From: Candidatus Methanomethylophilaceae archaeon
GTDB taxonomy: Archaea > Thermoplasmatota > Thermoplasmata > Methanomassiliicoccales > Methanomethylophilaceae
Direction of reading: 5' to 3'
NCBI GenBank assembly: GCA_017468935.1
Contig: JAFUHJ010000120.1
Span: 4,567-68,566 of the forward strand
DNA: 64,000 nt
Shown: one piece after another, positions 3,971 to 64,000 of the stretch
Numbering within the stretch: position 1 is the first letter of the stretch
Layout of the letters: each line of letters begins with the position of its first letter
Translations under genes and position numbers: made by a program
Notes under the pieces: generated by a model
The model's database searches: none
The model's input: only the letters and a program-made list of their open reading frames with translations
What the model was told of the DNA's origin: nothing

Positions 3971-4990
3971 ATGTTCCTTCTCGCTAAGAAACCCAGCACG
4001 GTCCAGAAGATAGTCGATATCAACATCCATTGGTCGGGTGACGATCCGTTCACATTCATATCGCACCACCATGACACATATCCCAAAGGGAACGCCCAGA
4101 TGGCACCTCCGCTCGAGACCATCCGCGGCAGGAACCTGGGCAGGGACTATCAGGAGAGGATGGGTTTCAGGATGTACCACGGACGCGTGGTACCCGGATT
4201 CCCCATGCACGCGCACTGGGGATATGAAACGGTAACTATAGCCGAGAAGGGATTCGTGGACCACTTCGATACCGAAGGCAACAACGGAAGGTTCGGTAAC
4301 GGGGACATGCAATGGACATTGGCCTCCAGCAGGTACGAGCACTGCGAGATGTATCCTCTCCTGGACCAGGAGAACGAGAACCCTGTCCATATCACGCAGA
4401 TAGCCATCAACCTCCCCCTTGACAGGAAGAACGGCGACATACACGTCAACAATGTTTGGGCCGAGAGCATCCCCGTCATCTCCACCGAGACATCCGAGGT
4501 GACCCTTTATTGCGGGAGATACGAAGGAAGGGAGATCTACTCTCCCAATCCGTCCTCATGGGCAGCACCCGAGAATTCCGTCAGGATAATGAAGATCGTC
4601 CTCAAACCAGGGGCGATATTCACACTTGATCCTCTGGATGACGGGGTGGACAGGAACCTGTACTACGTATCCGGAAAGGGTGCGACCCTCGAAGGGACCA
4701 AAATAAAGACTTGGCTCAGATACAAGATGAAGCGCTGCACGCCGGTGAACATCGTCAACGGTCCCGAGGAGTCCGAGTTCTGGATCCTGGAAGGAAAGCC
4801 GATAGGCGAGAGGCAGGCAAGCTTCGGACCTGTCATCCTGAAGGATATTGACGAGGTGAGGAGTTCCATGGACGAGATCAGGATCAAGGAGTTCCAGGAA
4901 TGGCCATGGGGAGTCATGGATGTCACCAACCCCATCGATATGGGACGGGAGCTCCACCGCAAGGACGGTTCTGTCGAAAGACCCATGTAA
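3971..4990 (+). CDS. pirin-family bicupin protein
   Basis: GFPMHAHWGYETVTIAEKGFVDHFDTEGNNGRFGNGDMQWTLA resembles the pirin N-terminal cupin metal site (HPHRGFETVTY...GDVQWM). Length ~340 aa. Confidence 0.72.
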   Translation: MFLLAKKPSTVQKIVDINIHWSGDDPFTFISHHHDTYPKGNAQMAPPLETIRGRNLGRDYQERMGFRMYHGRVVPGFPMHAHWGYETVTIAEKGFVDHFDTEGNNGRFGNGDMQWTLASSRYEHCEMYPLLDQENENPVHITQIAINLPLDRKNGDIHVNNVWAESIPVISTETSEVTLYCGRYEGREIYSPNPSSWAAPENSVRIMKIVLKPGAIFTLDPLDDGVDRNLYYVSGKGATLEGTKIKTWLRYKMKRCTPVNIVNGPEESEFWILEGKPIGERQASFGPVILKDIDEVRSSMDEIRIKEFQEWPWGVMDVTNPIDMGRELHRKDGSVERPM

Positions 4991-5010
4991 AATATATTTG
5001 GAAGGCCCAT

Positions 5011-6594
5011 ATGGGGCTCATGAATGGGATAAACAAGACGATCATGGCGGTCGTCTCGTCAATTGCACTCGTGTACTCGGGGCTATGCTTCTTCTTGACG
5101 CTCCACGGGTACATCAGCGGAGAAGGGGACCCTATACACTTCTATGTCTTCTTCCCAACGGATCTCTCCAACATCAACCTGGAGACATTGGGATTCGACA
5201 TCACCGCATGGATGATGTCCACGATACCGGCGCTCTATGACAGCATAGGCGACATCGGACTCTTCCAATGGATGTACGATAAAATCTTTGATCTGATCAC
5301 AGACATCGATTCCAAGATGAAATTCTACAGCGTCATGGTCATGCTCCTCATCGGTTTCATCCTCGCAGCGGCAGGTTTCATCTCCAAACCCGCTTCCGAC
5401 TGTACCGGACAGACCAATCCGGCAGAATATCTCTGGACCCACAGGCCGAATGCGTTCGCCAAGTGCCTTGCTATGCCCTGGGGGATCATCCTCGGAGCCT
5501 GGAACAAGAACAAGGTCCTAGTCATCGTACCGATCCTGCTCCTGCCCCTGTACGCCCCGTGGGCCCTGATGATCACCATCGCGCTGATCATCCCCTTCCT
5601 TCTTGTGAAGCTCGTTATCGGCTCAAAGATAACTTCTGCCGCCAAGAAGGAGAGCATCGAATACCAGAAGAACACGGATTTCGGAGTCTGTCCCCACTGT
5701 AAGATGAGCTTCGAGAGACCGAAGATCAAATGCAAATGCGGACTCATACTGGATTACCCCGTGCCCAACATCTACGGATACACGGTGCACTACTGCAACA
5801 AGGGACACGAGATCCCCTGTACCAGCGGAAAGAGGGCCAACCTCACCACCATCTGCCCCCACTGTGCGAAACAGATCCAGACCAGGGAGGCCCGCCCGAT
5901 CACCATCTCCATGGTAGGAGGAACGAACACGGGAAAGACATCGCTCATGCTCTCCGCCGTGGACACGATCACCCGCTGCGCCAGGACGGTGGATGTCACT
6001 GTGGACAGCCCCTCATCGGGACTGTCGAAGGAGGCCATCGCCGCCAAAGACTATGCTCCGAGGACCGTTCCCGGTGAGACCGAATCTCAGATCCTGTTCC
6101 TCAGGTCAATGAAACTCCAGGACAGGGAAATAGTCTTCAACGACGTGTCCGGAGTGGAATTCCAGCCTGCCGTGGACAAGGTGCTCTTCGAAGAGTACTA
6201 CAACTACACCGACGGGTTCATCTTCACCTTCGATCCGCTCGCGTTCAACAGAGAGTACCTCAGGGAGACGCCTCACGAGGTGTTCGAGAGCTTCCACTAC
6301 ATGTACACCACCATCAGGGGGATCGGACCATCTGCAAAGACCGATGTACCTTTCGCCGTCGTCGCCACGAAGAACGACCTAATGAACCTCAAGCTCAAGG
6401 ATGAGGACGTCAGGCAGTACCTTGTGGATAACGGCGAGGAGAACTTCGTCGCCGTGGTGGAATCGCTGTTCAGCGAAGTGAGATACTTCGCCGTAACCGC
6501 ACACGGATCGGACTGCGGATCGTCGATGAGACCTGTATGGTGGATCGTCGAGCACGTTGACAGGAAACTGACGGAACTCATACCTTCCGCATAA
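5011..6594 (+). CDS. membrane-anchored zinc-ribbon P-loop GTPase (uncharacterised family)
   Basis: N-terminal ~240 aa have about five hydrophobic helices. CxxC pairs follow (CPHCKMSF..CKCG; ICPHCAKQI). Then GTPase motifs: G1 GGTNTGKTS, G3 DVSG, G4 TKND. A TATA-like AAAATATATTT at 4989-4999 makes the ATG at 5011 or 5020 possibly leaderless. Confidence 0.7.
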   Translation: MGLMNGINKTIMAVVSSIALVYSGLCFFLTLHGYISGEGDPIHFYVFFPTDLSNINLETLGFDITAWMMSTIPALYDSIGDIGLFQWMYDKIFDLITDIDSKMKFYSVMVMLLIGFILAAAGFISKPASDCTGQTNPAEYLWTHRPNAFAKCLAMPWGIILGAWNKNKVLVIVPILLLPLYAPWALMITIALIIPFLLVKLVIGSKITSAAKKESIEYQKNTDFGVCPHCKMSFERPKIKCKCGLILDYPVPNIYGYTVHYCNKGHEIPCTSGKRANLTTICPHCAKQIQTREARPITISMVGGTNTGKTSLMLSAVDTITRCARTVDVTVDSPSSGLSKEAIAAKDYAPRTVPGETESQILFLRSMKLQDREIVFNDVSGVEFQPAVDKVLFEEYYNYTDGFIFTFDPLAFNREYLRETPHEVFESFHYMYTTIRGIGPSAKTDVPFAVVATKNDLMNLKLKDEDVRQYLVDNGEENFVAVVESLFSEVRYFAVTAHGSDCGSSMRPVWWIVEHVDRKLTELIPSA

Positions 6595-6619
6595 ATATGA
6601 GAAGACGGTTGGTACGGCT

Positions 6620-6901
6620 ATGGTCAAATCAGTCAACGCATCTCACATCCTGGTGTCCAACGCTAGGGATGCCGAAGGTATCATGATCCGCCTCTCCAAA
6701 GGAGAGGAATTCGCACAGCTCGCAAAGAGGTTCTCCAAGTGCCCCAGCAAATCTAAGGGCGGTAACCTCGGATGGTTCAGCAAGGGCGAGATGGTCCCCG
6801 AGTTCGAGAAAGCATGCTTCGAAGGACAGAAAGGACAGATCGTCGGACCCGTGAAGACGGAGTTCGGATACCATATAATAATGATCAACGATCAGAAATG
6901 A
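6620..6901 (+). CDS. parvulin-type peptidyl-prolyl cis-trans isomerase (PpiC/PinA-like)
   Basis: 93 aa. ASHILV...FAQLAKRFSKCPSKSKGGNLGWFSKGEMVPEFEKA...GPVKTEFGYHII is a single-domain parvulin signature. Confidence 0.92.
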   Translation: MVKSVNASHILVSNARDAEGIMIRLSKGEEFAQLAKRFSKCPSKSKGGNLGWFSKGEMVPEFEKACFEGQKGQIVGPVKTEFGYHIIMINDQK

Positions 6902-6910
6902 ACCTTCTTA

Positions 6911-6929
6911 CCGGCCCATTGTGGGCCGG
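6911..6929 (+). terminator. hairpin CCGGCCCA-TTG-TGGGCCGG after the parvulin gene
   Basis: Perfect 8-bp GC-rich stem, 10 nt after the stop. Confidence 0.55.
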
Positions 6930-7398
6930 ATCCAAACCCATTTCCTTGATTCTTTTGTAATGCAAATACGTCTGGGGGCTCTATCCCCATCATCTGAAGT
7001 ATAAAAAGAATTGAAGACATATTACCGTAGCCCCACCTCTGTGGATTATAATCTGCATCAGGCCCTATAGAAAAGTGGCAGTATTGTGGGTCGGTCTGGA
7101 AAAATGCAAGGACTCAAGAGTCGGCCTGATTGCCTCTGGCAACAGGGTCACGAGGGCCCTGATGATCCCCTGAAAAACCGGGGTACCATTCACTCATCTT
7201 CGGCATATACGAATCTATACCTGTCCGCCCTGTGGTCGATGCATGGTTTCAACACGCACATGAGAGGGCAATGGTCATACGAGGCCAAGATCCTGGCTGG
7301 ATGTCAGAAAAAAAGGGTGCTGTGAAGCTCGAGAGGGCCCATGAGAAGGAGAGCAATGCGATCGAGCATCTGAGACGTGTTGTCTTACCATCCACCCA

Positions 7399-7767
7399 TC
7401 AATATGTCGACGTACTGGCCTCTTTTATCTTCCAGGACTCCCCGATCCTGACGGCGACCATATCCATGCGGAGTCTCCATTCATGTCTCCCTCCGCCGTA
7501 TACGGCGGCGGTGACCCTGGAATAGCCGATGATCTTCGCACGATCCCCGCTGAGTTCGACATCGAATCTATCGGTGATGACCTTGTAATAGTTCAATGTC
7601 CCGTCCAGGACCGACGATACGAAACTCTCCGGGGTTTGGACCATCCCGGTCATGTGGATCATGGCCGCGTCTTCCGTCATGCATGACAGTATGGCCTCGC
7701 CATCCTTTTCCAGCATTCCGGTGTAGAGCTTCTCATAAAGGGCCTTCAACTGCACCTCTTCATCCAT
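7399..7767 (-). CDS. NTF2-like / SnoaL-like (DUF4440-type) small protein
   Basis: 122 aa with the pattern typical of SnoaL/DUF4440 cone-fold proteins (LYEKLYTGMLEKDGEAILSCMTEDAAMIHMTG...WRLRMDMVAVRIGESWKI). Confidence 0.6.
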   Translation of the reverse strand: MDEEVQLKALYEKLYTGMLEKDGEAILSCMTEDAAMIHMTGMVQTPESFVSSVLDGTLNYYKVITDRFDVELSGDRAKIIGYSRVTAAVYGGGRHEWRLRMDMVAVRIGESWKIKEASTSTY

Positions 7768-7771
7768 GCAT

Positions 7772-8326
7772 TCACTCCTTGCTTGGAGGGAATCTCTCCC
7801 CGTCCAGGGTCTTGATGGGTCTGGCCGGGGACCCTACGACCACCTCGTAGTCAGCAACATCGTGAGTGACCACTGAGGCCGCACCTACCACTGCGTATCT
7901 TCCTATGGTGACACCAGGCAATATGGTCGCATTGGCGCCGATCCAGGCACCCTCTTTGATGGTCACAGGCTTGCACAGCAGGAGATTCCTATTGTAGAGA
8001 TCGTGATTGTTGGACAGCACAGATACATTGGCGGCCACCATCACATTGTCCTCTATGGTGATCCCTCCGCGACACATGCCCAAGAAGTTGCCACCGATGT
8101 ACACGTTGTTGCCTATCCTCAGATTCTGGGAGGCTACCAGGTTGAATGGAGGGGTGAATCTCGTCCCTGTTCCGATACGGTCCTCCATGAGCTCCTTGAT
8201 GAGTGCGGAGTTCTCTTCCGTTAGAGGCATGGTGTTGTTGATCCTGTAGATCAACTGTGTCTCGCGGACGGCCTCTTTTATCCCATCTTCGATGACCTCG
8301 TTCATATCTACAACGAATTCTTCCAT
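7772..8326 (-). CDS. sugar O-acetyltransferase (maltose/galactoside acetyltransferase-like, left-handed beta-helix)
   Basis: Mac-type N-terminal region followed by hexapeptide repeats (IGNNVYIGGNF, ITIEDNVMVAANVSV, GAWIGANATILPGVTIGRYAVVGAASVV). Confidence 0.85.
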   Translation of the reverse strand: MEEFVVDMNEVIEDGIKEAVRETQLIYRINNTMPLTEENSALIKELMEDRIGTGTRFTPPFNLVASQNLRIGNNVYIGGNFLGMCRGGITIEDNVMVAANVSVLSNNHDLYNRNLLLCKPVTIKEGAWIGANATILPGVTIGRYAVVGAASVVTHDVADYEVVVGSPARPIKTLDGERFPPSKE

Positions 8327-8357
8327 AGTCTCACCTTCGGATGATCATCGTGTACGA

Positions 8358-8885
8358 TCACTCGACGCATCCCTTGGCCCACTTGGAGACCTTTGCAGAG
8401 GAACCTGCGGCGGAACTTCCTTCGATAGCCAGATCGGAATCGACTGATGCTCCTTTGCAAGCATTCCTGAGATCGCGTACAGAGGATCCGAGGCCGCTAC
8501 CCTCATGGGTCATTACGGGGAAAACCTTCTTTCCAGTCCAGTCGATCTTCTCGATCTGTGAGAACACGGCCATGGGATAAGTGCCCCACCAGCAAGGTCC
8601 GCAGATGAAGACGTTATCGTACCCGTCGATACTGTCCAGATACCTCTTCAATTCTGGCCTGGCCTTGTTCGACAGCTCGTCCTTGGCCTCTCTGGTGCAC
8701 TCCATATAATCCTTGGAGTACTCCCTTACGGTCTCTATCTCGAAGAGATCCCCTCCAACAGCCTCGGAGATATATTCCGCCACATACTCGGTGTTCCCTT
8801 TAGGGACGCTACGGATGTCTCCGCCGAAGTAGTTCTCTCCTTTGCGCGAGTAATAGATGATCAAATTCTTTGACATGCTTTTCAC
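8358..8885 (-). CDS. flavodoxin-family protein
   Basis: NLIIYYSRKGENY... and FICGPCWWGTYPMAV are typical of the flavodoxin_4-like family. An AT-rich promoter region lies upstream at 8886-9030. Confidence 0.8.
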   Translation of the reverse strand: MKSMSKNLIIYYSRKGENYFGGDIRSVPKGNTEYVAEYISEAVGGDLFEIETVREYSKDYMECTREAKDELSNKARPELKRYLDSIDGYDNVFICGPCWWGTYPMAVFSQIEKIDWTGKKVFPVMTHEGSGLGSSVRDLRNACKGASVDSDLAIEGSSAAGSSAKVSKWAKGCVE

Positions 8886-9059
8886 TGAAACTTGAAAAAC
8901 CAGATACTTATTAAGTATTTTTATATAAATATTCTATTATTGATTTAATTTTTTAATTGGATATAATAATCATTCTATTGATTGCTAAATACCAATTGGT
9001 ATAGGGCCCTTGATGGCTGATCGATGAATGGATGTAAAAATTAAGAATACAAGAAGGAT

Positions 9060-9077
9060 GACCGGCCGAGGCCGGTC
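9060..9077 (-). terminator. hairpin GACCGGC-CGAG-GCCGGTC downstream of the DUF308 gene
   Basis: 7-bp GC stem, 14 nt after the minus-strand stop at 9091. Confidence 0.5.
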
Positions 9078-9090
9078 GTGGTTGAAACGT

Positions 9091-9582
9091 TTACTTCTTC
9101 AGCAGTGCGACGATGTTGACGACACCGGCGACGACGAGCATTACTCCGAAGATGAGGAATGCGATGTCATTGCCCATGAAGATCAGGATACCTGCAAGTG
9201 CGATGAGGATACCGACGACGATTGTGAATGCGCTGGGGGATCCCTCTGCCTTGACTCCGCCGAATGCGATGAGTGCTCCGACGATGATGGCAACGACTCC
9301 AATGATCACTGTGGTTATGTCCGCCATAAGGTTGGGGACGAGCAGCAATACTATTCCCAAGATGATCATGACGATTCCCATCGCGTCGACATTCTTGACC
9401 ATGATCATGGGGATGAGTCCCGCGATGATCAGACAGATACCCGCAACTATGAATCCCAGCTCGAGGGCCAGGTCCTTGTCGATGATGAACAGTACACCGA
9501 CGATCACCATGAGAATTGTGTTGATGATCATGGATGTCTTGTTCTGAACATAGTAAACTTCCATGTAGATTACCTCTGACAC
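9091..9582 (-). CDS. DUF308/HdeD-like membrane protein
   Basis: 163 aa, almost entirely repeated G/A/I/V-rich TM helices (LLIIAGLIPMIMV, IIGVVAIIVGALIAFGG, LVVAGVVNIVALL). All overlapping plus-strand ORFs are shadows. Confidence 0.7.
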   Translation of the reverse strand: MSEVIYMEVYYVQNKTSMIINTILMVIVGVLFIIDKDLALELGFIVAGICLIIAGLIPMIMVKNVDAMGIVMIILGIVLLLVPNLMADITTVIIGVVAIIVGALIAFGGVKAEGSPSAFTIVVGILIALAGILIFMGNDIAFLIFGVMLVVAGVVNIVALLKK

Positions 9583-9714
9583 GGTAATTGATTAAACAAC
9601 AATTTAAGACTAACGTCAAACAAGTGCCAGAATAGCATCTTCGAACGAAGTTTTGGATATGAATGCCATGTTCCTTGCAGTGAGATAATCCCCTGCATCC
9701 CCGATCGCCATCAG

Positions 9715-10029
9715 CTACACGCCCGAGATTATCGAGTCCGCCTTCTCTTTGCCATAGTATGTCCCGATGTTCGAAAAGAAGATCTCCGCCTCCTCCGAGG
9801 ATTGGAAAAGGAGATGCGTGACGTTGCCCCTCTTCAGTTGCATGAAGAGATGGAGCTGTGCGTTGCTGGCGGTAACCTTGTCATGCTTGCCGTCTGCATC
9901 ATCGATGACGGTCACTCCGAAAGTCTCTATACCTTTGCTCTTTGCAAGCTCAGTCTGATCCTTCAGAAGACTTCCCACTGTGGTGAATCCCAATACGGCC
10001 ATGATATCAGAACCTGTATCCTTCATCAT
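9715..10029 (-). CDS. hypothetical small protein (only TAG-terminated ORF seen in the window)
   Basis: ORF 9715-10068. Candidate starts are at 10068, 10029/10026 and 10002, and the upstream gene stops at 10007. No family recognised. The stop codon is TAG. Confidence 0.45.
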   Translation of the reverse strand: MMKDTGSDIMAVLGFTTVGSLLKDQTELAKSKGIETFGVTVIDDADGKHDKVTASNAQLHLFMQLKRGNVTHLLFQSSEEAEIFFSNIGTYYGKEKADSIISGV

Positions 10030-10834
10030 ACTTTTTGAAATCTTCGTATTTGTACGGAGGTTTGACACCCAGACTCCAGAAGTAGTATTCCGGGTGGAAG
10101 TATCTGCCGCGGTCCTGGGTCAGGTCGGAGATCTGTATGGCCTTCTTCGGGCACATGTTGATGCAGCTCATGCACATGGAGCACTGGAGCTCATCCCATA
10201 CCGGCTTCCTGTGATACACCTTGATGATCTCTTCGGGACAGACATGTTCGCATATCCTGCATTCAATGCACTTCTCGTCTATCGTGAACTGCTCCGTGTT
10301 CCTGAAATCGAAGTACTGCTCCCTGGCCTCGTCGAAGGAATCGCATCCGGCCATCGTGCGGAAATCGCCTTTCTCCTTCTTGCCGAGCGATTCGATTATC
10401 CCACTAATCGTGACATCCGCGGCATCGTTTATCCTCTTGGCCTCATCCTTGTCGGGAACATCCTCGTAGTAGACTGCGTTCTCCGGCATCAGCACATCAT
10501 AGAACGCATCGACCTTCAGCCTCTTACCGAGTATCTCCTGGAGCTGTTCGCATGCCTTGCCTGATTCCCCAGCACAGGTTGATACCGCATACACATGCCC
10601 GGGCTTGACTATCTCCACCATCTCCAAGAACTCCTCGACCACCGAAGGCAGCCCGTGATAGTAAACGGGGAACACGAATCCGACATCGTTCCCTTCCGCG
10701 TTGTAGAATTTGCGCTTATACTTCACTGCAGCGGCCATCTCGACCATGTCCGATTTGAATGCGGTTGCGATCATTTTCGCTGCATGGTACGAGTTACCGG
10801 TCCCGGAGAACACGAAGATCATGATAAACCGCAT
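10007..10834 (-). CDS. flavodoxin-domain + 2x[4Fe-4S] ferredoxin fusion (EFR1-family-like)
   Basis: MRFIMIFVFSGTGNSYHAAK is a flavodoxin-like start. The C-terminus carries two CxxCxxCxxxCP motifs (CIECRICEHVCP, CSMCMSCINMCP). Confidence 0.8.
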   Translation of the reverse strand: MRFIMIFVFSGTGNSYHAAKMIATAFKSDMVEMAAAVKYKRKFYNAEGNDVGFVFPVYYHGLPSVVEEFLEMVEIVKPGHVYAVSTCAGESGKACEQLQEILGKRLKVDAFYDVLMPENAVYYEDVPDKDEAKRINDAADVTISGIIESLGKKEKGDFRTMAGCDSFDEAREQYFDFRNTEQFTIDEKCIECRICEHVCPEEIIKVYHRKPVWDELQCSMCMSCINMCPKKAIQISDLTQDRGRYFHPEYYFWSLGVKPPYKYEDFKKYDEGYRF

Positions 10835-10961
10835 CAGATACTCGGATATAACCGATGTGCCCTCGATCAATCCAGAAGGGCGAACAGGACCTGGTGTGGG
10901 ACGCATTCTTGTTCGGAATCCTCTGAAATAGATTAATTACTGCAAATGCCATTGCCCGGAC

Positions 10962-12176
10962 ATGGCAATCGCGAACGAGACCGAAATCAGGATCAAGGAT
11001 GACATCTATTGGATAGGCGGGGACGACAGGACGGCAGGACTGTTCGAAGGATCCTTTCCCATACCCGAAGGTGTCTCATACAACTCGTACGTGATCACCG
11101 ACGAGAAGACGTGTCTGCTGGACACATGCGATGCATCCATTTTGTCGAAGTTCTGGAAGAACTTCAGGCACGTTATGGACGGTCGCGAACTCGATTACTT
11201 CGTCATCAACCACATGGAACCGGACCACGGTGCAGCCATCATCCAGGTCCTCGATGCGTACCCCAATGTGACCGTTGTGGGCAACAGCAAGACGTTCGAT
11301 ATGCTCGACAACTTCTACCAGATCAAACCGGCGAACAGGCTGGAGGTCAAGGAGGGCGATGAGCTATGCCTCGGAAAGCACACACTGAAATTCTACTTCG
11401 CAGTCATGGTCCACTGGCCTGAGGTCATGTTCACCTACGACATGAAGGACAGGATACTATTCTCGGCAGATGCCTTCGGAACGTTCAAGACACTATCCGG
11501 TGCCCTCTATGCGGATGAGGTGGATTTCGACAGGGACTACCTGAGCGAGGCCAGAAGGTACTATGCCAACATCGTAGGCAAGTACGGTTCCAAGGTACAA
11601 TCGATCTTCGGCAAACTGGAAGGAGTGCAGATCGACATGGTCTGTCCCCTTCACGGACCCATTTGGAGAGGGGAACAGATCGGATACATCATGGAGAAGT
11701 ACATCACCTGGAGCCTCTATGAGCCCGAGGAGAAGGGGGTCGTCATCGCATACACCTCCATGTATGGCAACACCGCCGCTGTGGCCGACAAATTGGCTCT
11801 CCTCCTCAAGAGCAAGGGCGTGGAGAAGGTCACCATGTACGATGTCACAAGGACTCACCCCTCGTATGTTGTGGGTGATGCCTTCAGGTTCAGCAACATC
11901 GTGCTGGCTGCACCCACATACAACAACAACCTCCATCCTACCATGTCCGCCGTCATCGAGGATATGGAAATAATGACCGTCCAGAACAGGAAATACTCCC
12001 TGATCGGCAACGGATCGTGGGCGCCCCAGTCGCCCAAGATAATGGAGGATAGGATGTCGTCATTGAAGGGCATGACCAAGGTCGGCGAGACATTCGTCAT
12101 CAAATCCTCCATGCGCCCGGAGCAGATGGCAGATCTCGAAAGGTTGGCAGACGACATCGTCGGATCGATGAACTGA
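10962..12176 (+). CDS. fprA: flavodiiron protein (FprA-type O2/NO reductase)
   Basis: Metallo-beta-lactamase-like domain with NHMEPDHGAAI di-iron motif, plus a C-terminal flavodoxin domain (VVIAYTSMYGNTAAVADKLA). Confidence 0.9.
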   Translation: MAIANETEIRIKDDIYWIGGDDRTAGLFEGSFPIPEGVSYNSYVITDEKTCLLDTCDASILSKFWKNFRHVMDGRELDYFVINHMEPDHGAAIIQVLDAYPNVTVVGNSKTFDMLDNFYQIKPANRLEVKEGDELCLGKHTLKFYFAVMVHWPEVMFTYDMKDRILFSADAFGTFKTLSGALYADEVDFDRDYLSEARRYYANIVGKYGSKVQSIFGKLEGVQIDMVCPLHGPIWRGEQIGYIMEKYITWSLYEPEEKGVVIAYTSMYGNTAAVADKLALLLKSKGVEKVTMYDVTRTHPSYVVGDAFRFSNIVLAAPTYNNNLHPTMSAVIEDMEIMTVQNRKYSLIGNGSWAPQSPKIMEDRMSSLKGMTKVGETFVIKSSMRPEQMADLERLADDIVGSMN

Positions 12177-12252
12177 TGTCAGCACCAAAGGTCAATCGTC
12201 AAGGTCATAATTAACCGCCAAGTAATTATAACTCCGATTGGATTAGACGGGC

Positions 12253-13257
12253 ATGGCCTTTACCATAAGACTCTGCCCCTATTGCGGCGGAGCCATCTCC
12301 TCGGATGAGGCAGGATACTATGTCTGTTCTGAATGTGAGAAACGCACATTCAGATCCAGGTCCAATGCGAAGGCATTCCTGCTCAACAAACCATACGAGA
12401 ATGAATATCTCCAGATAATCAACCAGATTGACAGCGACCCTGAGAAATCCGTGGATGCGATGGACGATATCATCAACAACTCCGAGGAAGAACCCGAAGC
12501 CGACATGTTCTTCGTGCGCGGCATAGCCTATGCGGCCATGGGGGAGGAAGGTAAGGCACACTCGGATTGGAAGAAGGGCCTGGATCTCATCACGGACCTT
12601 CGTTTTATCGATTCATACATCATAGCCGTGTGCAAACGCATCGTCGACATGACATGTATGAAGGAGCGCGAATACATAGCATTCAATCCGATCGAATACA
12701 TCGATGCCATCTCGACGGAATTCGGGGTGAAGGCAGAGGTCTCGTGCAAAGGCATCTTCTACATCACAGTCTACAGGAACTTCAGGATGAAGCACCAGTC
12801 GGGTGAACTGGATGACGATCCGGAGATCTACCCTACGATCATTCCGAAACTGCTGACCAAGATTCTTTCTTACGGTCGTGACTTCCGTACGGTCAACAAC
12901 ATCATCGAAGAGATCCTCGAGGACTTCCATTACGATCCCGACACATATGTGGAGGACGACAATCTGAAACTCCATATGTGCAGCCTTCTGAAATCGGAAT
13001 ACGAATCCCTGACGGAGAACTTCAGCGATGAGCACAAGGCCCGCATCTTCAAGCATTGGAACGATGCCAACATGTTCGACCTGGAGTACTGGATGGATGA
13101 ACTCATGAAATCTGTGAAGGACGACAACATCCTTCAGAAGCTGCGTTCGTTCGGTGCCCCCAGAGAGGACTTCGACCTCAACAACGCCGTAGAGGATTAC
13201 GCCAGGAAGTTCCTTCTTCTATCCGAAGACGGAAAGGACCTCTCAGAGGAATCCTGA
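12253..13257 (+). CDS. hypothetical protein with N-terminal zinc ribbon and helical body
   Basis: CPYCGG...-x-CSECEK zinc ribbon at the N-terminus, one TPR-like segment (FFVRGIAYAAMGEEGKAHSDWKKGLDL), and an acidic helical remainder. No family recognised. Confidence 0.55.
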   Translation: MAFTIRLCPYCGGAISSDEAGYYVCSECEKRTFRSRSNAKAFLLNKPYENEYLQIINQIDSDPEKSVDAMDDIINNSEEEPEADMFFVRGIAYAAMGEEGKAHSDWKKGLDLITDLRFIDSYIIAVCKRIVDMTCMKEREYIAFNPIEYIDAISTEFGVKAEVSCKGIFYITVYRNFRMKHQSGELDDDPEIYPTIIPKLLTKILSYGRDFRTVNNIIEEILEDFHYDPDTYVEDDNLKLHMCSLLKSEYESLTENFSDEHKARIFKHWNDANMFDLEYWMDELMKSVKDDNILQKLRSFGAPREDFDLNNAVEDYARKFLLLSEDGKDLSEES

Positions 13258-13803
13258 GTGTTCCAGCAAGATCTTCACTCCTATCAGGATCAATATCGCT
13301 CCGCCGACGAATTTGGCCTTGTTGCTGAATCTGTCACCGACTATGCTACCCATCTTGACTCCGACCACGGAGATCAGGAATGTTATCGCACCGATCATAG
13401 CGGCGTCCAGCCAGATGTTGGAACCGTCCATCGCCATCGATATCCCAGCGGCCAGAGCATCTATGCTCGTGGCAACTGCAAGGAGGAACATTATACGTAA
13501 GCTTATGCTGTCGTCCACATCCTCCTCGTCATCAGAAACGGACTCCCGGATCATGTTGATACCTATCAGGGCCAACAATCCGAAGGCGACCCAATGGTCC
13601 ACATCTGCGATGTACTGGTAGAATGACTCCCCGAGATAGAATCCGATCAATGGCATGATCATCTGGAAGCTTCCGAACCAGATACCGACTATCACCATCG
13701 CTTTCAGGCCTGGTGTCCTCATGGCCAATCCTTTGCATATGGATACTGCGAAGGCATCCATGGCGAGGCCTATTCCCAGTAGGATGATGGATATCGGATC
13801 CAT
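13243..13803 (-). CDS. mntP: manganese efflux pump MntP
   Basis: 186 aa. GLAMDAFAVSICKG and VATSIDALAAGISM are the duplicated MntP/YebN signature. 15-nt convergent overlap with the previous gene. Confidence 0.9.
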   Translation of the reverse strand: MDPISIILLGIGLAMDAFAVSICKGLAMRTPGLKAMVIVGIWFGSFQMIMPLIGFYLGESFYQYIADVDHWVAFGLLALIGINMIRESVSDDEEDVDDSISLRIMFLLAVATSIDALAAGISMAMDGSNIWLDAAMIGAITFLISVVGVKMGSIVGDRFSNKAKFVGGAILILIGVKILLEHSGFL

Positions 13804-60077: not shown

Positions 60078-62108
60078 ATGAAGGTAGGTATAGACCTCGG
60101 AACAACATACTCTGCAGTAGCAAGATATGATAAGGCGTCGAACAAACCGGTCATGCTGAACAACTCGTTCGGTAAGGAGATCACCCCCTCGGTCATCTGT
60201 TTCCTTGATGACGGGGACATCCTGGTCGGAGAGGACGCCAAGGATATGCAGTCGAACGGAACTGGTGTCAACGCTGCGGCTTTCAAGCGCAACATGGGTG
60301 ACGGATCCATCGTTGTCAGCTTCAACGGCAAGGACTATACGGCGGAAGACCTCTCAGCCATGCTCCTCAAGCACCTGATCGAGGATGCTGAGAAAGCAGC
60401 GGGCGAGAAGATCGATGAAGCGGTCATCACGGTCCCCGCATACTTCGAGGACGCTCAGAGAACCGCTACGAAGCGCGCGGGAGAGGCTTGCGGGATCAAG
60501 GTCCCCAAGATCATCAACGAGCCCACGGCGGCCGCCATCTCATACGGATACAAGCACTCGGCCGACAAGACCCTCCTGGTCTATGACCTGGGAGGAGGAA
60601 CGTTCGATGTCACGATTGTTAGGGTCACAAAAGGAAGCATAGAGGTCATCGGTACGAACGGAAACCACATCCTCGGAGGAAAGGACTGGGACGCGGCCAT
60701 CGTCAAGTTCGTATGCGACAGGTTCGTCAACGAGTTCGATGTGGACCCCAGGGATGACCTTCCCACCAAGAACGAGCTCATCGTGGCGGCAGAGGGATAC
60801 AAGAAGACACTGTCCATCGCCGAGAGCGTTACGATCCCGATAAACTACGAGGGATGCAGCGAGAAGTACACCCTCACCAGGGATGAATTCGAATCAATGA
60901 CCGAGCACCTGATGAATGCGACCAAAGAGGTCTGCGAGGATCTGATGGATTCGCTCGGAATGCAGTGGACAGACATCGACGAGATCCTCCTGTGCGGTGG
61001 ATCCACAAGGATGCCGGGCGTCGCGAAGTTCCTGAAGAGCTTCACCGGACGCGAGGTCGTCACACACAGCGATACCGACCTGGCCGTCGCGAAGGGAGCA
61101 GCCATCACAGCCGAGCTCTACAGCAGCAACGCCACCGGAATGAGGGCCGCCATGCAGGTGTCCGATGTCACTGCGCACAGTCTCGGAGCACTCTCAGTCA
61201 GTCAGGACGGGAAGAAGTACGTCAACGAGATCATGATCAAGAGGAACTCCAAGGTCCCCAGCACATGCAAGAAGCAGTTCTCCATCAAACCGGGCAACAT
61301 GACCGACAAGATCGAGGTCTACACCCTGCAGGGAGAATCGAGGATCCCGCTGGACTGTAACGTCCTTGCAAAAGTGGTCATCACAGGCTTCTACAACGAC
61401 GGAAAAGGAGTCATCATCGATATAGAATACAATTACGACGAGAACGGAATCGTCAACATCAGGGCATCGCAGGGCGAGGAGCCCCTCGACGTCAAGTCCG
61501 AGCCCGTTCCCGACGACATAAGGTGGATGGGCGGAGACCCGCACGACAAGCCTTCAGACGTGAAGATCGCCAAGAACATAGCGATCTGCGTCGACCTCTC
61601 CAGGAGTATGGAGGGAGAACCCATCGAGGCCGCAAAGGATTCGATCCGCAGCTTCGTACGCACCCTGTCCGACGAACAGACCAAGTTCTCGCTCATCGGA
61701 TTCGGGGACAAGGTCAAGGTCGTCCAGGAACTCACCAATGACACCGACGTCATCATCAACTCCATCGAGGAGCTCAAAGTCAAGATGCTCGGAAGGGGAA
61801 CCGACGCCAGCCCGCTGGACACAGCGAGGATGGTCATCGGAGGCCAGCCCGGAGTGGGCATCATCGTCGTACTCACGGACGGAATCTGGGGTAAGAGGGA
61901 CAATGCAGTGGACCAGGCTCTCGGCTGCAGGACCGATGGAATAACCATAATCGCCATCGGACTCGGAGAGGCGGACACATCGTTCCTCAGGCAGATCGCC
62001 ACCGTCGATGACGGTGCCCTGTTCACGACCATCGACAAGCTCGGTGACACCTTCGGAACCATCGCAACCGCGATCTCTGCAGGAAACATGGGTCTCGCTG
62101 TCCGCTGA
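60078..62108 (+). CDS. non-canonical Hsp70 (actin-fold ATPase + SBD-beta) fused to a C-terminal von Willebrand factor A domain
   Basis: Hsp70 motifs: VGIDLGTTYSAVA, INEPTAAAISYG, VYDLGGGTFDVTIV, LLCGGSTRMPGV. An SBD-beta-like region follows (AHSLGALSV...), with no helical lid or EEVD. The last ~165 aa form a vWA domain with an intact MIDAS (DLSRS, GTD, LTDG). Confidence 0.88.
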   Translation: MKVGIDLGTTYSAVARYDKASNKPVMLNNSFGKEITPSVICFLDDGDILVGEDAKDMQSNGTGVNAAAFKRNMGDGSIVVSFNGKDYTAEDLSAMLLKHLIEDAEKAAGEKIDEAVITVPAYFEDAQRTATKRAGEACGIKVPKIINEPTAAAISYGYKHSADKTLLVYDLGGGTFDVTIVRVTKGSIEVIGTNGNHILGGKDWDAAIVKFVCDRFVNEFDVDPRDDLPTKNELIVAAEGYKKTLSIAESVTIPINYEGCSEKYTLTRDEFESMTEHLMNATKEVCEDLMDSLGMQWTDIDEILLCGGSTRMPGVAKFLKSFTGREVVTHSDTDLAVAKGAAITAELYSSNATGMRAAMQVSDVTAHSLGALSVSQDGKKYVNEIMIKRNSKVPSTCKKQFSIKPGNMTDKIEVYTLQGESRIPLDCNVLAKVVITGFYNDGKGVIIDIEYNYDENGIVNIRASQGEEPLDVKSEPVPDDIRWMGGDPHDKPSDVKIAKNIAICVDLSRSMEGEPIEAAKDSIRSFVRTLSDEQTKFSLIGFGDKVKVVQELTNDTDVIINSIEELKVKMLGRGTDASPLDTARMVIGGQPGVGIIVVLTDGIWGKRDNAVDQALGCRTDGITIIAIGLGEADTSFLRQIATVDDGALFTTIDKLGDTFGTIATAISAGNMGLAVR

Positions 62109-62118
62109 AGGAGTTAAC

Positions 62119-64000
62119 ATGGCTAGTAAGACAGACAACTACTGTCAACTCCTGGGTCTCGACCCTTACAACGAAAGCAAGTACTCCCTAGACAAGATCA
62201 ACGAGAAGATAGACAAGATGGAAGTCAAATGGGCCAACGAGTTCAGGAACAAGCAGAACGACACTGGCCAGCGCTTCAAGTACCACAAATTGGTGGATGA
62301 AGTGCCGGAGATGAAACGCTGCATGGCCGACCCGATGCTCAGGAGAAAGGTCTTCTCGGAAGGAAAGAAGAGCCTCGAGGGCAAGGTCCAGAGACTCAAG
62401 CTCGACTGCGTCATACTCACGGACGGCAGATACATCATCCTGCCGGGATTCCTGGACAACTTCGTCAAGAGGCTGCACTGGGACGGAGTGGACAAGAAGC
62501 AGATCCTGAAGATCGCGGGCATCAGCGAAGGCACCGTCCCCAAGATCGTCAGCGAGAAGGTCGTCAACGCCTTCACCAACCTGACTACAGTGGACGCCTA
62601 CACTCCTGTCGAAGTACTCAATGTCCTCATCACGAATCCGGACCTGGAGATCAGGTGCGACCCCCTGACGGAGGCCAGCTCACTCGCCCAGGTCAGGAAC
62701 GCGTTCGAACTGTGCGAGAAGAGGGTCAACAGCGTCAGGCAGGACATCCTGCCCGACCAGGATTCCTACATATCGGTGCTCAGGAGCCTCAAGCTCATCA
62801 TCGATTCGGACAAGGAGATGAAGGACCTCATCAACTACGGAAGATGCTACAAGGCCCTCGTCCCCGTCATGGAGATGATCGACAAGGAATACACAGGACA
62901 GCAGCTCTCCAGGAACTACATCGACGACCTGATGAACATCTATGTCAGGGGACTCGACCAGGACATGTGCATCAACATCCTCCAGGCCTACTGCCACAAG
63001 AAGAGGATCGCTGCCAACTTCTCTAAGCTGGACAGCACCATGATCAGATGCCCCGAGTGTAACAACATGGTCCCCGGCGGGAAGAACACGATGTTCTGCC
63101 CCTACTGCGGTAAGAACTTCAAGATAGTCTGCCCGCAGTGTAACACGGCACAGCAGTCCAGCAACGGCATCTGTATCAAGTGCGGTTTCAACTTCAAGGA
63201 CGGAGAGACCAAGGCCCAGAACCTCGCCTTAGGATTCCGCATGGACATCCAGAAGGGTAACCTGACCAAGGCGGAGAAGGACCTGTCGATGCTGAAGACC
63301 ACCTACGCGACCTTTGCCGGCATCGCCGGCATGGAGGTCCAACTCCGCAAGGAACAGGGTACGTTGAACACCCTGAAGAACATGGTCAACGACAACCATA
63401 GGAACAACAAGTACTACGCCGCGAAGAGCGCCGGAGACACCATCGTCAGCAGATATCCGAGCGAGATGGTCAACTATCCGGATGTCAAGCAGAGGTACGA
63501 TGAATCCCTGCAGCGCGTCCAGCATGCGGATGTGTTCGTCCATCAGGCTGAGGCCACGGAGGACAGGAACCAGATGCTCTCGCTGTATGTGAGTGCCGCA
63601 GAGGAATGTCCCGACCATCCGTCGGCAAAGGGTGTGCTGAAGCAGTATCCTCCAGCAGGACCTGCTGATCCCGTTGCACAGATCAAGGACGGACGCCTCG
63701 TCATCAAGTACGAGCCCCCCAGCGACAGCAGTGGAGTCACATACGCCATCTACAGGGAGAAGAACTCCCTTCCAAACGTTACCGAGGAGACACGTCCCCT
63801 GACGGAGATACCCGGTACGGTATACACCGATAAAACCCTCGAGCCCGGTATAGAATACTACTATTCCGTATACTCTAAGCGCTGGGGCATCCTATCCAGG
63901 GAAGCGGCCCACTTCGGACCGGTCATATTCCTTGCGGAGGTCGAGAGGGTCACCATCGACCAGATCGACGGAGGACTTCGCCTCATGTACGAGAAGCCCC
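62119..64000 (+). CDS. large multidomain protein, 3' end outside window: degenerate J-like N-terminus + helical region + double zinc ribbon + FN3-like domain
   Basis: Hand translation is open from ATG 62119 to the window end (627 codons, no stop), which is why it is absent from the ORF track. N-terminal DNYCQLLGLDPYNESKYSLDKINEKIDKMEVKW resembles J-domain helices I-II without HPD. Zinc ribbons: CPECNN..CPYCG..CPQCN..CIKCG. A later segment GVTYAIYRE...YTDKTLEPGIEYYYSVYS is FN3-like. Confidence 0.8.
   Translation, partial: MASKTDNYCQLLGLDPYNESKYSLDKINEKIDKMEVKWANEFRNKQNDTGQRFKYHKLVDEVPEMKRCMADPMLRRKVFSEGKKSLEGKVQRLKLDCVILTDGRYIILPGFLDNFVKRLHWDGVDKKQILKIAGISEGTVPKIVSEKVVNAFTNLTTVDAYTPVEVLNVLITNPDLEIRCDPLTEASSLAQVRNAFELCEKRVNSVRQDILPDQDSYISVLRSLKLIIDSDKEMKDLINYGRCYKALVPVMEMIDKEYTGQQLSRNYIDDLMNIYVRGLDQDMCINILQAYCHKKRIAANFSKLDSTMIRCPECNNMVPGGKNTMFCPYCGKNFKIVCPQCNTAQQSSNGICIKCGFNFKDGETKAQNLALGFRMDIQKGNLTKAEKDLSMLKTTYATFAGIAGMEVQLRKEQGTLNTLKNMVNDNHRNNKYYAAKSAGDTIVSRYPSEMVNYPDVKQRYDESLQRVQHADVFVHQAEATEDRNQMLSLYVSAAEECPDHPSAKGVLKQYPPAGPADPVAQIKDGRLVIKYEPPSDSSGVTYAIYREKNSLPNVTEETRPLTEIPGTVYTDKTLEPGIEYYYSVYSKRWGILSREAAHFGPVIFLAEVERVTIDQIDGGLRLMYEKP

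Follow-up and report, generated by a model that had tools for sequence, protein, structure and literature searches.

A gene near one end of the 64,000-nt stretch of DNA analyzed here (the window; positions 4,567 to 68,566 of the forward strand of contig JAFUHJ010000120.1, assembly GCA_017468935.1, from a Candidatus Methanomethylophilaceae archaeon) encodes a protein that joins membrane helices and zinc ribbons to a GTPase domain. To which family does this protein belong, and with what does it work? The results described below point to a membrane GTPase that is most likely the partner of a private Hsp70 chaperone operon located 55 kb away. The gene (5020-6594) and its 524-amino-acid product are both referred to here as the membrane GTPase; the parts of this gene and of the operon that are given window coordinates below lie on the forward strand.

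Gene Start and Genomic Context

The open reading frame (ORF) ends with a stop codon at 6594 and offers candidate start codons at 4900, 5011, and 5020; a first-pass annotation of this DNA had begun the gene at 5011. The Met equivalent to 5020 (M-N-G-x-N-K) is the first residue in all 104 of 104 full-length relatives, and neither upstream start (5011 or 4900) is conserved among homologs. The conserved Met of the relatives, together with an upstream TATA-like element, makes 5020 the likely start. The assignment of 5020-6594 draws on the ORF list, its translation, the conserved start, a match to Pfam PF19993, and dN/dS values. The TATA-like element, AAATATATTT (4989-4998), was read from the sequence and is found just 3′ of the stop codon of a pirin gene, ~26 nt before the ATG at 5020. 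Judged by the usual archaeal TATA-to-start spacing, it is possibly the gene's own promoter, giving a leaderless mRNA. The neighboring genes encode pirin, Dus, and a parvulin peptidyl-prolyl isomerase (PPIase). Orthologs are present in 85 of the 173 genomes of the taxonomic family, and most of these 85 have an unbroken reading frame, the exceptions being two in-frame TAG codons and some matches split between contigs. Comparison with the closest ortholog gave a dN/dS of 0.08, indicating strong purifying selection. The membrane GTPase is a real, well-conserved gene of a gut methanogen.

Membrane Region and Zinc Ribbons

The first predicted transmembrane (TM) helix spans residues 7-29 (5038-5106), where hydropathy (19-residue sliding average) stays at or above 1.6 from residue 6 to residue 29 and AlphaFold places a helix at residues 2-33. 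It is followed by a variable acidic loop (residues 30-98; 5107-5313) with one Lys/Arg against 11 Asp/Glu, which is predicted by the positive-inside rule to face the outside of the cell. No other part of the protein changes as fast in sequence and length: the mean identity of relatives to the protein encoded in the window is 0.14 and loop length varies from 27 to 70 amino acids among them. TM helix 2 (residues 99-121; 5314-5382) corresponds to a hydropathy segment at 98-126 and an AlphaFold helix at 98-121. The basic juxtamembrane segment after it (residues 122-163; 5383-5508) is predicted to be cytoplasmic and contains the motif N-P-A-E-Y-L-W-T-H-R-P and an amphipathic helix, with four Lys/Arg against two Asp/Glu. 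Among 27 relatives, P134, L138, and T140 of this segment do not vary, and R142, P143, P153, and W161 are kept in at least 90%. A hydrophobic stretch of about 37-44 residues then forms a helical hairpin in the AlphaFold model, assigned to TM helices 3 and 4 (residues 164-200; 5509-5619; hydropathy 165-208; AlphaFold helices 165-173 and 175-218). From hydropathy and the AlphaFold model, the count is thus four predicted membrane helices, with an amphipathic helix beside the membrane in addition, which comes near the "about five" helices of the first-pass annotation. Neither method revealed a hydrophobic segment past residue 208 that could form a C-terminal TM helix, and the protein ends in an amphipathic helix. 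In this topology the N terminus, juxtamembrane motif, zinc ribbons, and GTPase domain would all be on the cytoplasmic side.

Zinc ribbon 1 (residues 222-245; 5683-5754) is built on C224, C227, C238, and C240, all invariant in the 27 relatives. These Cys residues align with the CPxC...CxxCG pattern of bacterial TM-type DO-GTPases. The following segment (residues 246-290; 5755-5889) comprises a linker, Y-P-V-P-N-x-Y-G, and zinc ribbon 2, a module also present in the bacterial relatives. In the same relatives (34-80% identity), its C259, C279, and C282 never vary, and C267 is kept in at least 90%.

Modeling of the C-Terminal Domain

The remainder of the protein (residues 291-524; 5890-6591) was assigned as a DO-GTPase2 domain using Pfam PF19993, AlphaFold/Foldseek, and invariant motifs, and it closes with a C-terminal P..WWI helix. 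The motifs named in the first-pass annotation are all present, with key residues that are invariant or at least 90% conserved: G1 is GGTNTGKT (5917-5940; G300, G305, K306, and T307 invariant), G3/Walker B is D-V-S-G-V-E (6142-6159; D375, G378, and E380 invariant), and G4 is T-K-N-D (6367-6378; D453 at least 90% conserved). T349, invariant in the relatives, is a candidate switch-I Thr. The AlphaFold model of the protein has a pLDDT of 85.7, and Foldseek matched the C-terminal domain to Arl13B, Ral, Rab, Ran, and EF-Tu at a probability of 1.00. By this model, the domain belongs to the TRAFAC GTPases, and its G1-G4 motifs are all intact. The structural check proposed with the first-pass annotation therefore gave the predicted outcome, and the overall architecture that it described (membrane helices, two zinc ribbons, and a C-terminal small-GTPase-like domain) is borne out by hydropathy, the conserved Cys residues, and the structural comparisons. 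A profile search of PDB sequences identified no relative (best E 0.11).

The Walker-B motif of this clade is D-[VI]-S-G-x-E, in which the invariant E380 lies one residue later than the Glu of the D-x-A-G-E motif in bacterial relatives. The displacement of the family's catalytic Glu, and the separation of the gene from the Hsp70 operon described below, could be taken as signs that the protein is a pseudo-GTPase or a decaying relic of a system since broken up. We regard this as very improbable: all of the G motifs, the eight Cys residues, and E380 are kept across relatives of 34-99% identity, most of the 85 genomes keep an open frame, and the low overall dN/dS falls to 0.06 in the G domain.

Assignment to the DO-GTPase2 Family

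The membrane GTPase scores 28.0 bits with Pfam PF19993 (DO-GTPase2), marginally above the curated cut-off of 27 (E 2e-6), and the match covers positions 2-209 of the 226 in the profile. The same family is precomputed for most of the 104 orthologs, and distant TM-type relatives score 31-39 bits, several of them passing. A profile built on the membrane GTPase and searched against a library of 1.84 billion proteins retrieved 1659 cluster representatives at E<=1e-3 (877 at E<=1e-10), most of them aligning from the hairpin (residue ~164) onward. Of the best 150 of these relatives, nearly all combine hydrophobic segments near the N terminus with a P-loop and about four CxxC/CxC motifs. A contig scan with one relative fused to leucine-rich repeats (LRR), P0114, gave only an LRR match, in a Bacteroidaceae metagenome-assembled genome.

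On these sequence comparisons, the protein is a member of the DO-GTPase2 family and not the founder of a new one. Kaur, Burroughs, Iyer, and Aravind (eLife 2020; PMC7159879) established this family by computational prediction. The first-pass annotation had called the family unrecognized; the protein passes the Pfam cut-off, though by a single bit (28 vs. 27), and the architecture is one described in PMC7159879. The annotation had named membership in a well-characterized family as grounds for refutation, which applies only in part: the family is recognized, but a literature search and the PDB sequence search found no structure, biochemistry, or genetics for it. In the account given in PMC7159879, the DO-GTPase name reflects working in pairs, and one or two N-terminal zinc ribbons occur in 60% of members. 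The second GTPase of GAP1-N2 systems is described there as having four N-terminal TM helices and two zinc ribbons, followed by one C-terminal TM helix and often an extracellular domain. The relatives of the membrane GTPase are the TM-type second GTPases of GAP1-N2-type systems. Models of housekeeping GTPases (FeoB, Era, Obg, HflX, and SRP54/FtsY) gave nothing over threshold and matched only at the level of the P-loop (12 bits with MMR_HSR1; 10 bits with HflX, whose cut-off is 217), in keeping with the exclusion of FeoB, Era, Obg, and HflX made from the sequence at first reading, and NCBIfam returned nothing useful. The annotation "DO-GTPase2-family membrane GTPase" would be better than "hypothetical" or "SAR1 family".

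The Hsp70 Operon and Related Loci

The operon at the far end of the window continues beyond its edge and occupies positions 4645-13340 of locus L009 (window coordinate = L009 coordinate + 55433). Its first gene encodes an Hsp70-vWA protein (60078-62108; Pfam HSP70 371 bits, VWA 67 bits). The second (62008-64000, cut by the window edge), assigned from the ORFs and Pfam, encodes a 1035-amino-acid putative zinc-ribbon/FNIII-type scaffold, in which Pfam detects a double zinc ribbon only. It is homologous to the scaffold of a GAP1-containing system in another genome of the same genus, G139. Outside the window, the scaffold gene is followed by genes for a soluble zinc-ribbon DO-GTPase2 (L009 9683-10936; 30.8 bits), a GrpE-like protein (L009 10840-11772; 29.5 bits), and a second Hsp70 (L009 11769-13340). 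The membrane GTPase and the soluble operon GTPase, whose Walker B is DTAGE against DxxGxE in the membrane protein, are the only two DO-GTPase2-like genes in the genome. The HSP70/GrpE theme of GTPase-centric systems, as set out in PMC7159879, comprises an FNIII-repeat protein with Hsp70 and GrpE, and sometimes a second, lid-less Hsp70; Hsp70 plus GrpE are carried by 14% according to that source.

No GAP1, the protein supposed to link the two GTPases as an adaptor, was detected in this 96.8%-complete genome: PF20013 and PF20014 gave nothing at E<=10, and the GAP1 of G139 gave nothing at E<=1. The Pfam models did find GAP1 in G139 and in locus L055. Two candidates for a concealed GAP1 were considered and rejected. 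The 1035-amino-acid scaffold has no similarity to the G139 GAP1 and instead matches the G139 scaffold, and the ORF at 1096-2895, upstream of the membrane GTPase, matches no Pfam family, with neither the GAP1 models nor the G139 protein finding anything in the genome.

G139 has a second system (locus L031), in which a single operon contains two TM-type paralogs, a soluble GTPase (G139:C44:87743-88699), GAP1 (GAP1-N2 43 bits; GAP1-M 32 bits), Hsp70-vWA, a scaffold, and GrpE. The scaffold of this GAP1-containing system is 26% identical over ~800 amino acids to that of the L009 operon. L055, a bacterial-like contig, encodes a soluble GTPase, GAP1 (128 bits), a TM-type GTPase, vWA, and tubulin. Its TM-type GTPase is identical to library protein P0276 and falls in the 90%-identity cluster of P0117, which matches the membrane GTPase profile at E 3e-44.

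Relationship of the Membrane GTPase to the Operon

The membrane GTPase is probably the membrane-anchored member of a paralogous double-GTPase pair that works with the Hsp70-vWA, scaffold, GrpE-like, and Hsp70 proteins of the operon. In 20 genomes of the sister genera g7, g11, g12, and g14, the two GTPase genes lie 4-7 kb apart and are convergent; one such region, in G069, was read directly. The operon GTPase is also present in 83 of the 85 other genomes that have the membrane GTPase, and TM-type relatives are found inside canonical GAP1-N2 operons (G139 and L055). The link to the Hsp70-associated ORF raised in the first-pass annotation fits these linked and co-occurring genes. The 4-7 kb linkage could be inherited synteny, and because the genomes are related, the co-occurrence represents few independent events.

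The opposing reading is a stand-alone membrane GTPase that has lost its working tie to the operon or never had one. It would act by itself or with the products of its neighbors (pirin and the parvulin-type prolyl isomerase), perhaps as a switch that signals the state of the envelope, redox, or folding. Within the genus, the gene is 51-60 kb from the operon in three genomes and ~390-500 kb away in two, and it has an apparent TATA-like element of its own. Pirin adjoins it here and in g11 and g14 despite a change in orientation, although in G124 pirin is 13 kb away. Even where the gene and the operon are closely linked, two unrelated genes, one for pirin and one for a pseudouridine synthase, separate them. 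Complete genomes of g12 and g19, as well as G150, have the operon but not the membrane GTPase, with at least three losses of the membrane GTPase in which the operon was kept, and the membrane GTPase is therefore not needed for the core activity of the operon. The two GTPases also have very low similarity (BLASTP E 0.005 over 55 residues), and the absence of a detectable GAP1 likewise speaks against a partnership. Against the stand-alone reading, only two of the 85 genomes have the membrane GTPase without the operon GTPase, and both are incomplete (60% and 78%). In addition, every identified relative with readable context sits in an operon with a soluble paralog, and the family is named for working in pairs. 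We consider a GTPase independent of the operon unlikely and favor the partnership.

Inheritance and Possible Purpose

The purpose of the system may be defense, as the authors of the family predicted, or general envelope/proteostasis surveillance. PMC7159879 places DO-GTPase systems in mobile, effector-rich neighborhoods, mainly in multicellular bacteria, and predicts a role in defense against invaders; the suggestion of a signaling or conflict module in the first-pass annotation agrees with that prediction. An alternative concerning purpose alone is that the GTPase pair and Hsp70 proteins serve proteostasis of the membrane or envelope, as a housekeeping device passed down vertically, with no antiviral or conflict function. 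Within the genus, the soluble operon GTPase is found in 61 of 61 genomes and the membrane GTPase in 56 of 61, and the identities and the tree (a quick IQ-TREE analysis with SH-aLRT support only) follow taxonomy. Searches of plasmids and phages with tblastn produced no match. PADLOC-DB 2.0 yielded a sole match for the membrane GTPase (LeoA; 13 bits, E 0.0075, 33 residues), and for the operon proteins and the G139 system its defense models gave weak, chance-level matches at most. GAP1 and the usual variable effectors are absent. The dN/dS of the outer loop is 0.20, equal to that of the linker/zinc-ribbon region and the highest of the regions with substitutions, and no positive selection in the loop was evident from pairwise dN/dS (maximum 0.44), a blunt test for it in which dS is saturated in the deeper pairs. 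Set against the housekeeping reading are the rapid divergence of that loop in sequence and length, the mobile, effector-rich, predicted conflict neighborhoods of other family members, and the additional, patchy paralogous systems in seven genomes of the same genus. A housekeeping role is quite possible, though less likely than not.

Proposed Mechanism

In the partnership favored here, the acidic loop between TM1 and TM2 would serve as the outside input. A change in the envelope would be relayed through the juxtamembrane motif and the long helix joining TM4 to the linker to the G domain, which in its GTP-bound form would pair with the soluble GTPase. At the membrane, such pairing would recruit or release the private Hsp70 machine, and the system would be reset once GTP is hydrolyzed. 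The one-residue displacement of the Walker-B Glu, read from the alignments, suggests that the pair is asymmetric, its membrane half perhaps being slower and regulatory. A more specific proposal is that the Methanomethylophilaceae have a domesticated, vertically inherited, GAP1-less, split core machine, in which the membrane GTPase acts as a slow envelope sensor gating Hsp70-vWA through an asymmetric heterodimer. This is offered tentatively, as it is rather unlikely to hold in full. If true, a single-celled archaeon would have turned a predicted conflict system to housekeeping use, in surveillance of its envelope.

DO-GTPase systems are widespread, judging from the 1659 representatives retrieved, and a single comparative-genomics paper is all that describes them. 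The archaeal version is stripped down: a single membrane GTPase, a single soluble one, and its own set of Hsp70 proteins, with neither GAP1 nor variable effectors. Stably inherited across a whole genus of gut methanogens, this reduced version offers a simple case for learning how a GTPase pair controls an Hsp70 machine at the membrane, and the archaeal lineage allows a test of whether DO-GTPase systems always concern defense.

Comparison with Known Systems

The fold of the G domain is similar to those of eukaryotic and bacterial small GTPases (Arf/Arl, Ras/Ral, Rab, and Ran) and of domain 1 of EF-Tu (Foldseek TM-score 0.51-0.71, normalized to the small-GTPase target), with which it has in common G1, the switch-I Thr, DxxG, and a G4 of the [NT]KxD type. 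It differs from the small GTPases in having Thr for Asn in G4 and in lacking a conserved Gln at the position of Ras Gln61; it is embedded in the membrane, carries zinc ribbons, and is not one of them at the sequence level. FeoB also joins a G domain to a polytopic membrane part, but in the reverse order, with the G domain N-terminal, and it possesses Gate and FeoB_C domains. A true FeoB at the far end of the window scores 231 bits, and the membrane GTPase gives no FeoB match.

The G139 system is closer. Its TM-type paralogs have four TM helices, two zinc ribbons, and a P-loop and are 25-31% identical to the membrane GTPase over residues ~160-500, and its Hsp70-vWA, scaffold, and GrpE parts are as in the operon described here. 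It differs in that its TM GTPases are within the operon, in tandem and next to GAP1, and have no Walker-B Glu at all; systems of this second type are patchy, occurring in seven genomes. The published GAP1-N2 systems of the HSP70/GrpE theme share with the membrane GTPase its four N-terminal TM helices, two zinc ribbons, TRAFAC GTPase domain, and Pfam family, and with its genome a soluble zinc-ribbon paralog beside an FNIII-type scaffold, Hsp70-vWA, a GrpE-like protein, and a second Hsp70. The membrane GTPase departs from the GAP1-N2 systems in its lack of a C-terminal TM helix or extracellular C-terminal domain, its DxxGxE rather than DxxGE Walker-B motif, its genome's lack of a detectable GAP1, and its position 55 kb from the operon. 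Finally, the published systems are described as mobile, whereas inheritance of the membrane GTPase is vertical and near-universal in one archaeal genus.

Architecture of the membrane GTPase

The gene occupies a single long forward-strand ORF that ends at 6594 and has candidate starts at 4900, 5011, and 5020. The methionine equivalent to 5020 (M-N-G-x-N-K) is the start in all full-length relatives, a start at 4900 would create a 90-nt overlap with the upstream pirin gene, and a TATA-like AAATATATTT at 4989–4998 lies ~26 nt upstream of the ATG at 5020. The gene was therefore assigned to 5020–6594 (+), and residues are numbered on the resulting 524-aa protein. Transcription may start at a promoter of its own and yield a leaderless mRNA.

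Hydropathy analysis identified clear transmembrane (TM) helices at residues 6–29 and 98–126, and a hydrophobic stretch at 165–208. The AlphaFold2 model, built from a 27-sequence alignment (mean pLDDT 85.7; pTM 0.70), folds this stretch as a hairpin of helices 165–173 and 175–218, the second of which continues into a presumably cytoplasmic linker. The TM1–TM2 loop (residues 30–98) is acidic (11 Asp/Glu, 1 Lys/Arg), its length varies between 27 and 70 residues in the relatives, and its identity averages only 14%. Conservation and a basic character mark the segment following TM2 (122–163) and the linker beyond the hairpin, the former containing invariant P134, L138, and T140 within an N-P-A-E-Y-L-W-T-H-R-P motif. 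By the positive-inside rule, the loop is predicted to face outward, with everything from residue 201 in the cytoplasm.

Two zinc ribbons follow. All four cysteines of the first (C224, C227, C238, and C240) are invariant, as are C259, C279, and C282 of the second, in which C267 is at least 90% conserved. The C-terminal 234 residues form the GTPase domain, with G1 (G-G-T-N-T-G-K-T; G300, G305, K306, and T307 invariant), a candidate switch-I threonine (T349, invariant), G3 (N-D-V-S-G-V-E; N374, D375, G378, and E380 invariant), G4 (T-K-N-D; D453 at least 90% conserved), and a conserved C-terminal P..WWI helix. Foldseek matched this domain to the small GTPases Arl13B, Ral, Rab, and Ran and to EF-Tu with a probability of 1.00. 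Hydropathy, model, motifs, and fold thus bear out, in substance, the first-pass annotation of a protein combining TM helices, zinc ribbons, and a small-GTPase-like domain.

Family assignment and distribution

The same annotation placed the protein in an unrecognised family, which the searches did not support. It scores 28 bits against Pfam PF19993 ("Double-GTPase 2"), one bit above the curated threshold of 27; this margin is thin on its own, and further results back family membership. Most orthologues carry a precomputed PF19993 assignment. A profile search of 1.84 billion proteins returned 1659 cluster representatives at E≤1e-3 (877 at E≤1e-10), most with alignments that span the hairpin, the zinc ribbons, and the G domain. 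A P-loop was present in 136 of the 146 top matches examined, nearly all 136 also carrying hydrophobic segments at the N-terminus and, directly before the P-loop, three to five CxxC/CxC motifs. Several distant relatives exceed the PF19993 threshold (31–39 bits), one of them with a bacterial SH3 domain C-terminal to the G domain, and the zinc ribbon 1/P-x-x-Y-G/zinc ribbon 2 module can be aligned position by position with that of distant relatives.

The DO-GTPase family goes back to Kaur, Burroughs, Iyer and Aravind (eLife 2020, PMC7159879), who describe its members as TRAFAC GTPases with a conserved Walker B glutamate. Zinc ribbons, one or two at the N-terminus, occur in 60% of members, and N-terminal TM segments in 13%. 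The architecture found here was already described, since the second GTPase of GAP1-N2 systems bears two zinc ribbons behind four N-terminal TM helices. The membrane GTPase is almost certainly a member. The family is recognised yet not characterised: beyond that comparative study, a literature search turned up nothing but brief references to it and hits on unrelated words, and a PDB sequence profile search found no relative of the protein among solved structures.

Of the 173 other genomes in this taxonomic family, 85 encode an orthologue; none was found in 87 genomes from the order's six other families. Compared with the closest orthologue (94% identical), dN/dS was 0.08 over the whole protein; the G domain alone gave 0.06 and the outer loop 0.20. 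The protein is under purifying selection, relaxed in the loop, where pairwise dN/dS gave no signal of positive selection.

A probable soluble partner in a GAP1-less operon

A PF19993 scan of the whole genome (assembly 96.8% complete) found only two credible DO-GTPase genes, the membrane GTPase and a soluble zinc-ribbon protein of 417 aa (30.8 bits) just past the 3' end of the window. The latter is the third gene of a forward-strand operon, preceded by Hsp70-vWA (60078–62108) and a zinc-ribbon scaffold of 1035 aa (starting at 62008 and truncated at the window edge) and followed, beyond the window, by a GrpE-like protein and a 523-aa Hsp70. In published systems, two DO-GTPase paralogues commonly lie beside a GAP1 protein, and 14% of neighbourhoods contain Hsp70 and GrpE, in some cases alongside another Hsp70 lacking the peptide-binding domain (PMC7159879). 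The operon follows this theme without GAP1. Neither the Pfam GAP1-N2 and GAP1-M models (E≤10) nor the GAP1 of the sister genome G139, used as query, matched anything in the genome. Comparison with the G139 GAP1 and scaffold identified the 1035-aa protein as a scaffold and ruled it out as a hidden GAP1. A 599-aa ORF without a Pfam family (1096–2895, +) was likewise rejected, since those searches were empty genome-wide; its first ~690 nt overlap a DinB/ImpB-family polymerase gene (403–1785, −), so its real start is probably an internal methionine.

The membrane GTPase probably works together with this operon, judging from gene content and order and from the related systems described in the next section. 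The two GTPase genes are convergent and 4–7 kb apart in 20 genomes of four genera (g7, g11, g12, and g14); in one of them, G069, the membrane GTPase is followed by pirin (opposite strand), a pseudouridine synthase, and the operon running towards them. Where the membrane GTPase occurs in other genomes (85), the soluble GTPase is present too in 83, the two exceptions being 60% and 78% complete, although these genomes are related and the co-occurrence represents few independent events. Other observations weigh against a strict association. Two unrelated genes separate the pair even in the linked genera, where proximity may be inherited synteny, and linkage is broken in the window's genus (51–60 kb in G000, G119, and G125; ~390–500 kb in G175 and G124). 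Pairwise BLAST shows hardly any similarity between the two GTPases. The soluble GTPase occurs in 119 of 173 genomes of the taxonomic family, and its quick tree follows genera and implies at least three losses of the membrane GTPase with the operon kept (g19, most of g12, and G150 within g1). Profile searches confirmed that the gene is missing from G150 (97% complete) and from five g12 and g19 genomes that are complete or nearly so. The operon is clearly functional without the membrane GTPase in some lineages.

The g19 and g12 loss lineages lie on longer soluble-GTPase branches, and G150, a recent loss, does not; constraint may have changed after partner loss, a pattern that is suggestive only, coming from a quick tree. 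Separately, the pirin-family gene (3971–4990, +) adjoins the membrane GTPase upstream on the same strand, is downstream and convergent in g11 and g14 (4763–5791, −, in locus L028), and is 13 kb away in G124. Its adjacency could reflect inherited synteny or a weak functional link.

Related systems in other genomes

Seven genomes of the same genus (G139, G127, G131, G132, G138, G140, and G141) carry a second, fully clustered DO-GTPase system that is absent from the window's genome. In G139 (locus L031, 6743–18882) it comprises tandem TM-type GTPases, a soluble GTPase, GAP1 (above threshold on both models; GAP1-N2 43 bits, GAP1-M 32 bits), Hsp70-vWA, scaffold, and GrpE. The tandem proteins (6743–8116 and 8247–9578) resemble the membrane GTPase in having four TM helices, two zinc ribbons, and a P-loop, at 25–31% identity. 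They read F-D-I-N-G-[AS]-Y-F and entirely lack the Walker B glutamate, so they may be catalytically impaired partners.

Gene context among distant relatives was read for one protein, P0276, a member of the 90%-identity cluster represented by P0117 (E 3e-44 for P0117 against the profile of the membrane GTPase). Its metagenome contig (L055, Ga0183101_1000540; 30% GC) encodes, in order, a soluble DO-GTPase, GAP1 (GAP1-N2 128 bits), the TM-type DO-GTPase, vWA, a 1135-aa tubulin-like protein, a 781-aa unknown protein, and vWA, a textbook case of the published Firmicutes tubulin theme. Three of the closest relatives outside the orthologue group (P0114, P0116, and P0132; 1100–1500 aa) bear six or seven BspA-type leucine-rich repeats N-terminal to the TM, zinc-ribbon, and GTPase part, which suggests an exchangeable input module at the N-terminus, presumably outside the cell.

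A working model and comparison with known systems

Domain order, conserved motifs, and family and context relationships are established; from these we infer the remainder of a mechanism. The variable outer loop, replaced by a large leucine-rich repeat domain in some relatives, would receive the input, and the juxtamembrane motif and the continuous TM4–linker helix would couple it to the zinc ribbons and G domain. The protein would then pair with the soluble GTPase in a GTP-dependent manner, which would recruit the scaffold and Hsp70-vWA machinery to the membrane, or set it free there, and GTP hydrolysis would reset the switch. Bacterial relatives and the soluble partner read D-x-A-G-E, with the glutamate at the position of Ras Gln61, and the membrane GTPase clade reads D-x-S-G-x-E, its invariant glutamate one residue later. 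This shift would fit, speculatively, an asymmetric pair whose membrane half is slow in hydrolysis or partner-dependent.

The defining paper predicted a conflict (anti-invader) role for DO-GTPase systems (PMC7159879). A housekeeping role in the envelope or in proteostasis would instead suit a system that is near-universal in its genus and vertically inherited, has no matches in plasmid and phage collections, is not known to PADLOC, lacks GAP1 and variable effectors, and shows no pairwise signal of positive selection in its outer loop; we regard such a role as a credible alternative, though less likely than not. The membrane GTPase merits being annotated correctly and offers a good minimal model of a family predicted by comparative genomics. 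Its family and architecture are already described and will not surprise a specialist; the novelty is a variant. It differs from the published TM-type GTPase in belonging to an archaeal clade that spans a single genus, in having no C-terminal TM helix, in its shifted Walker B glutamate, and in being encoded separately from a GAP1-less operon.
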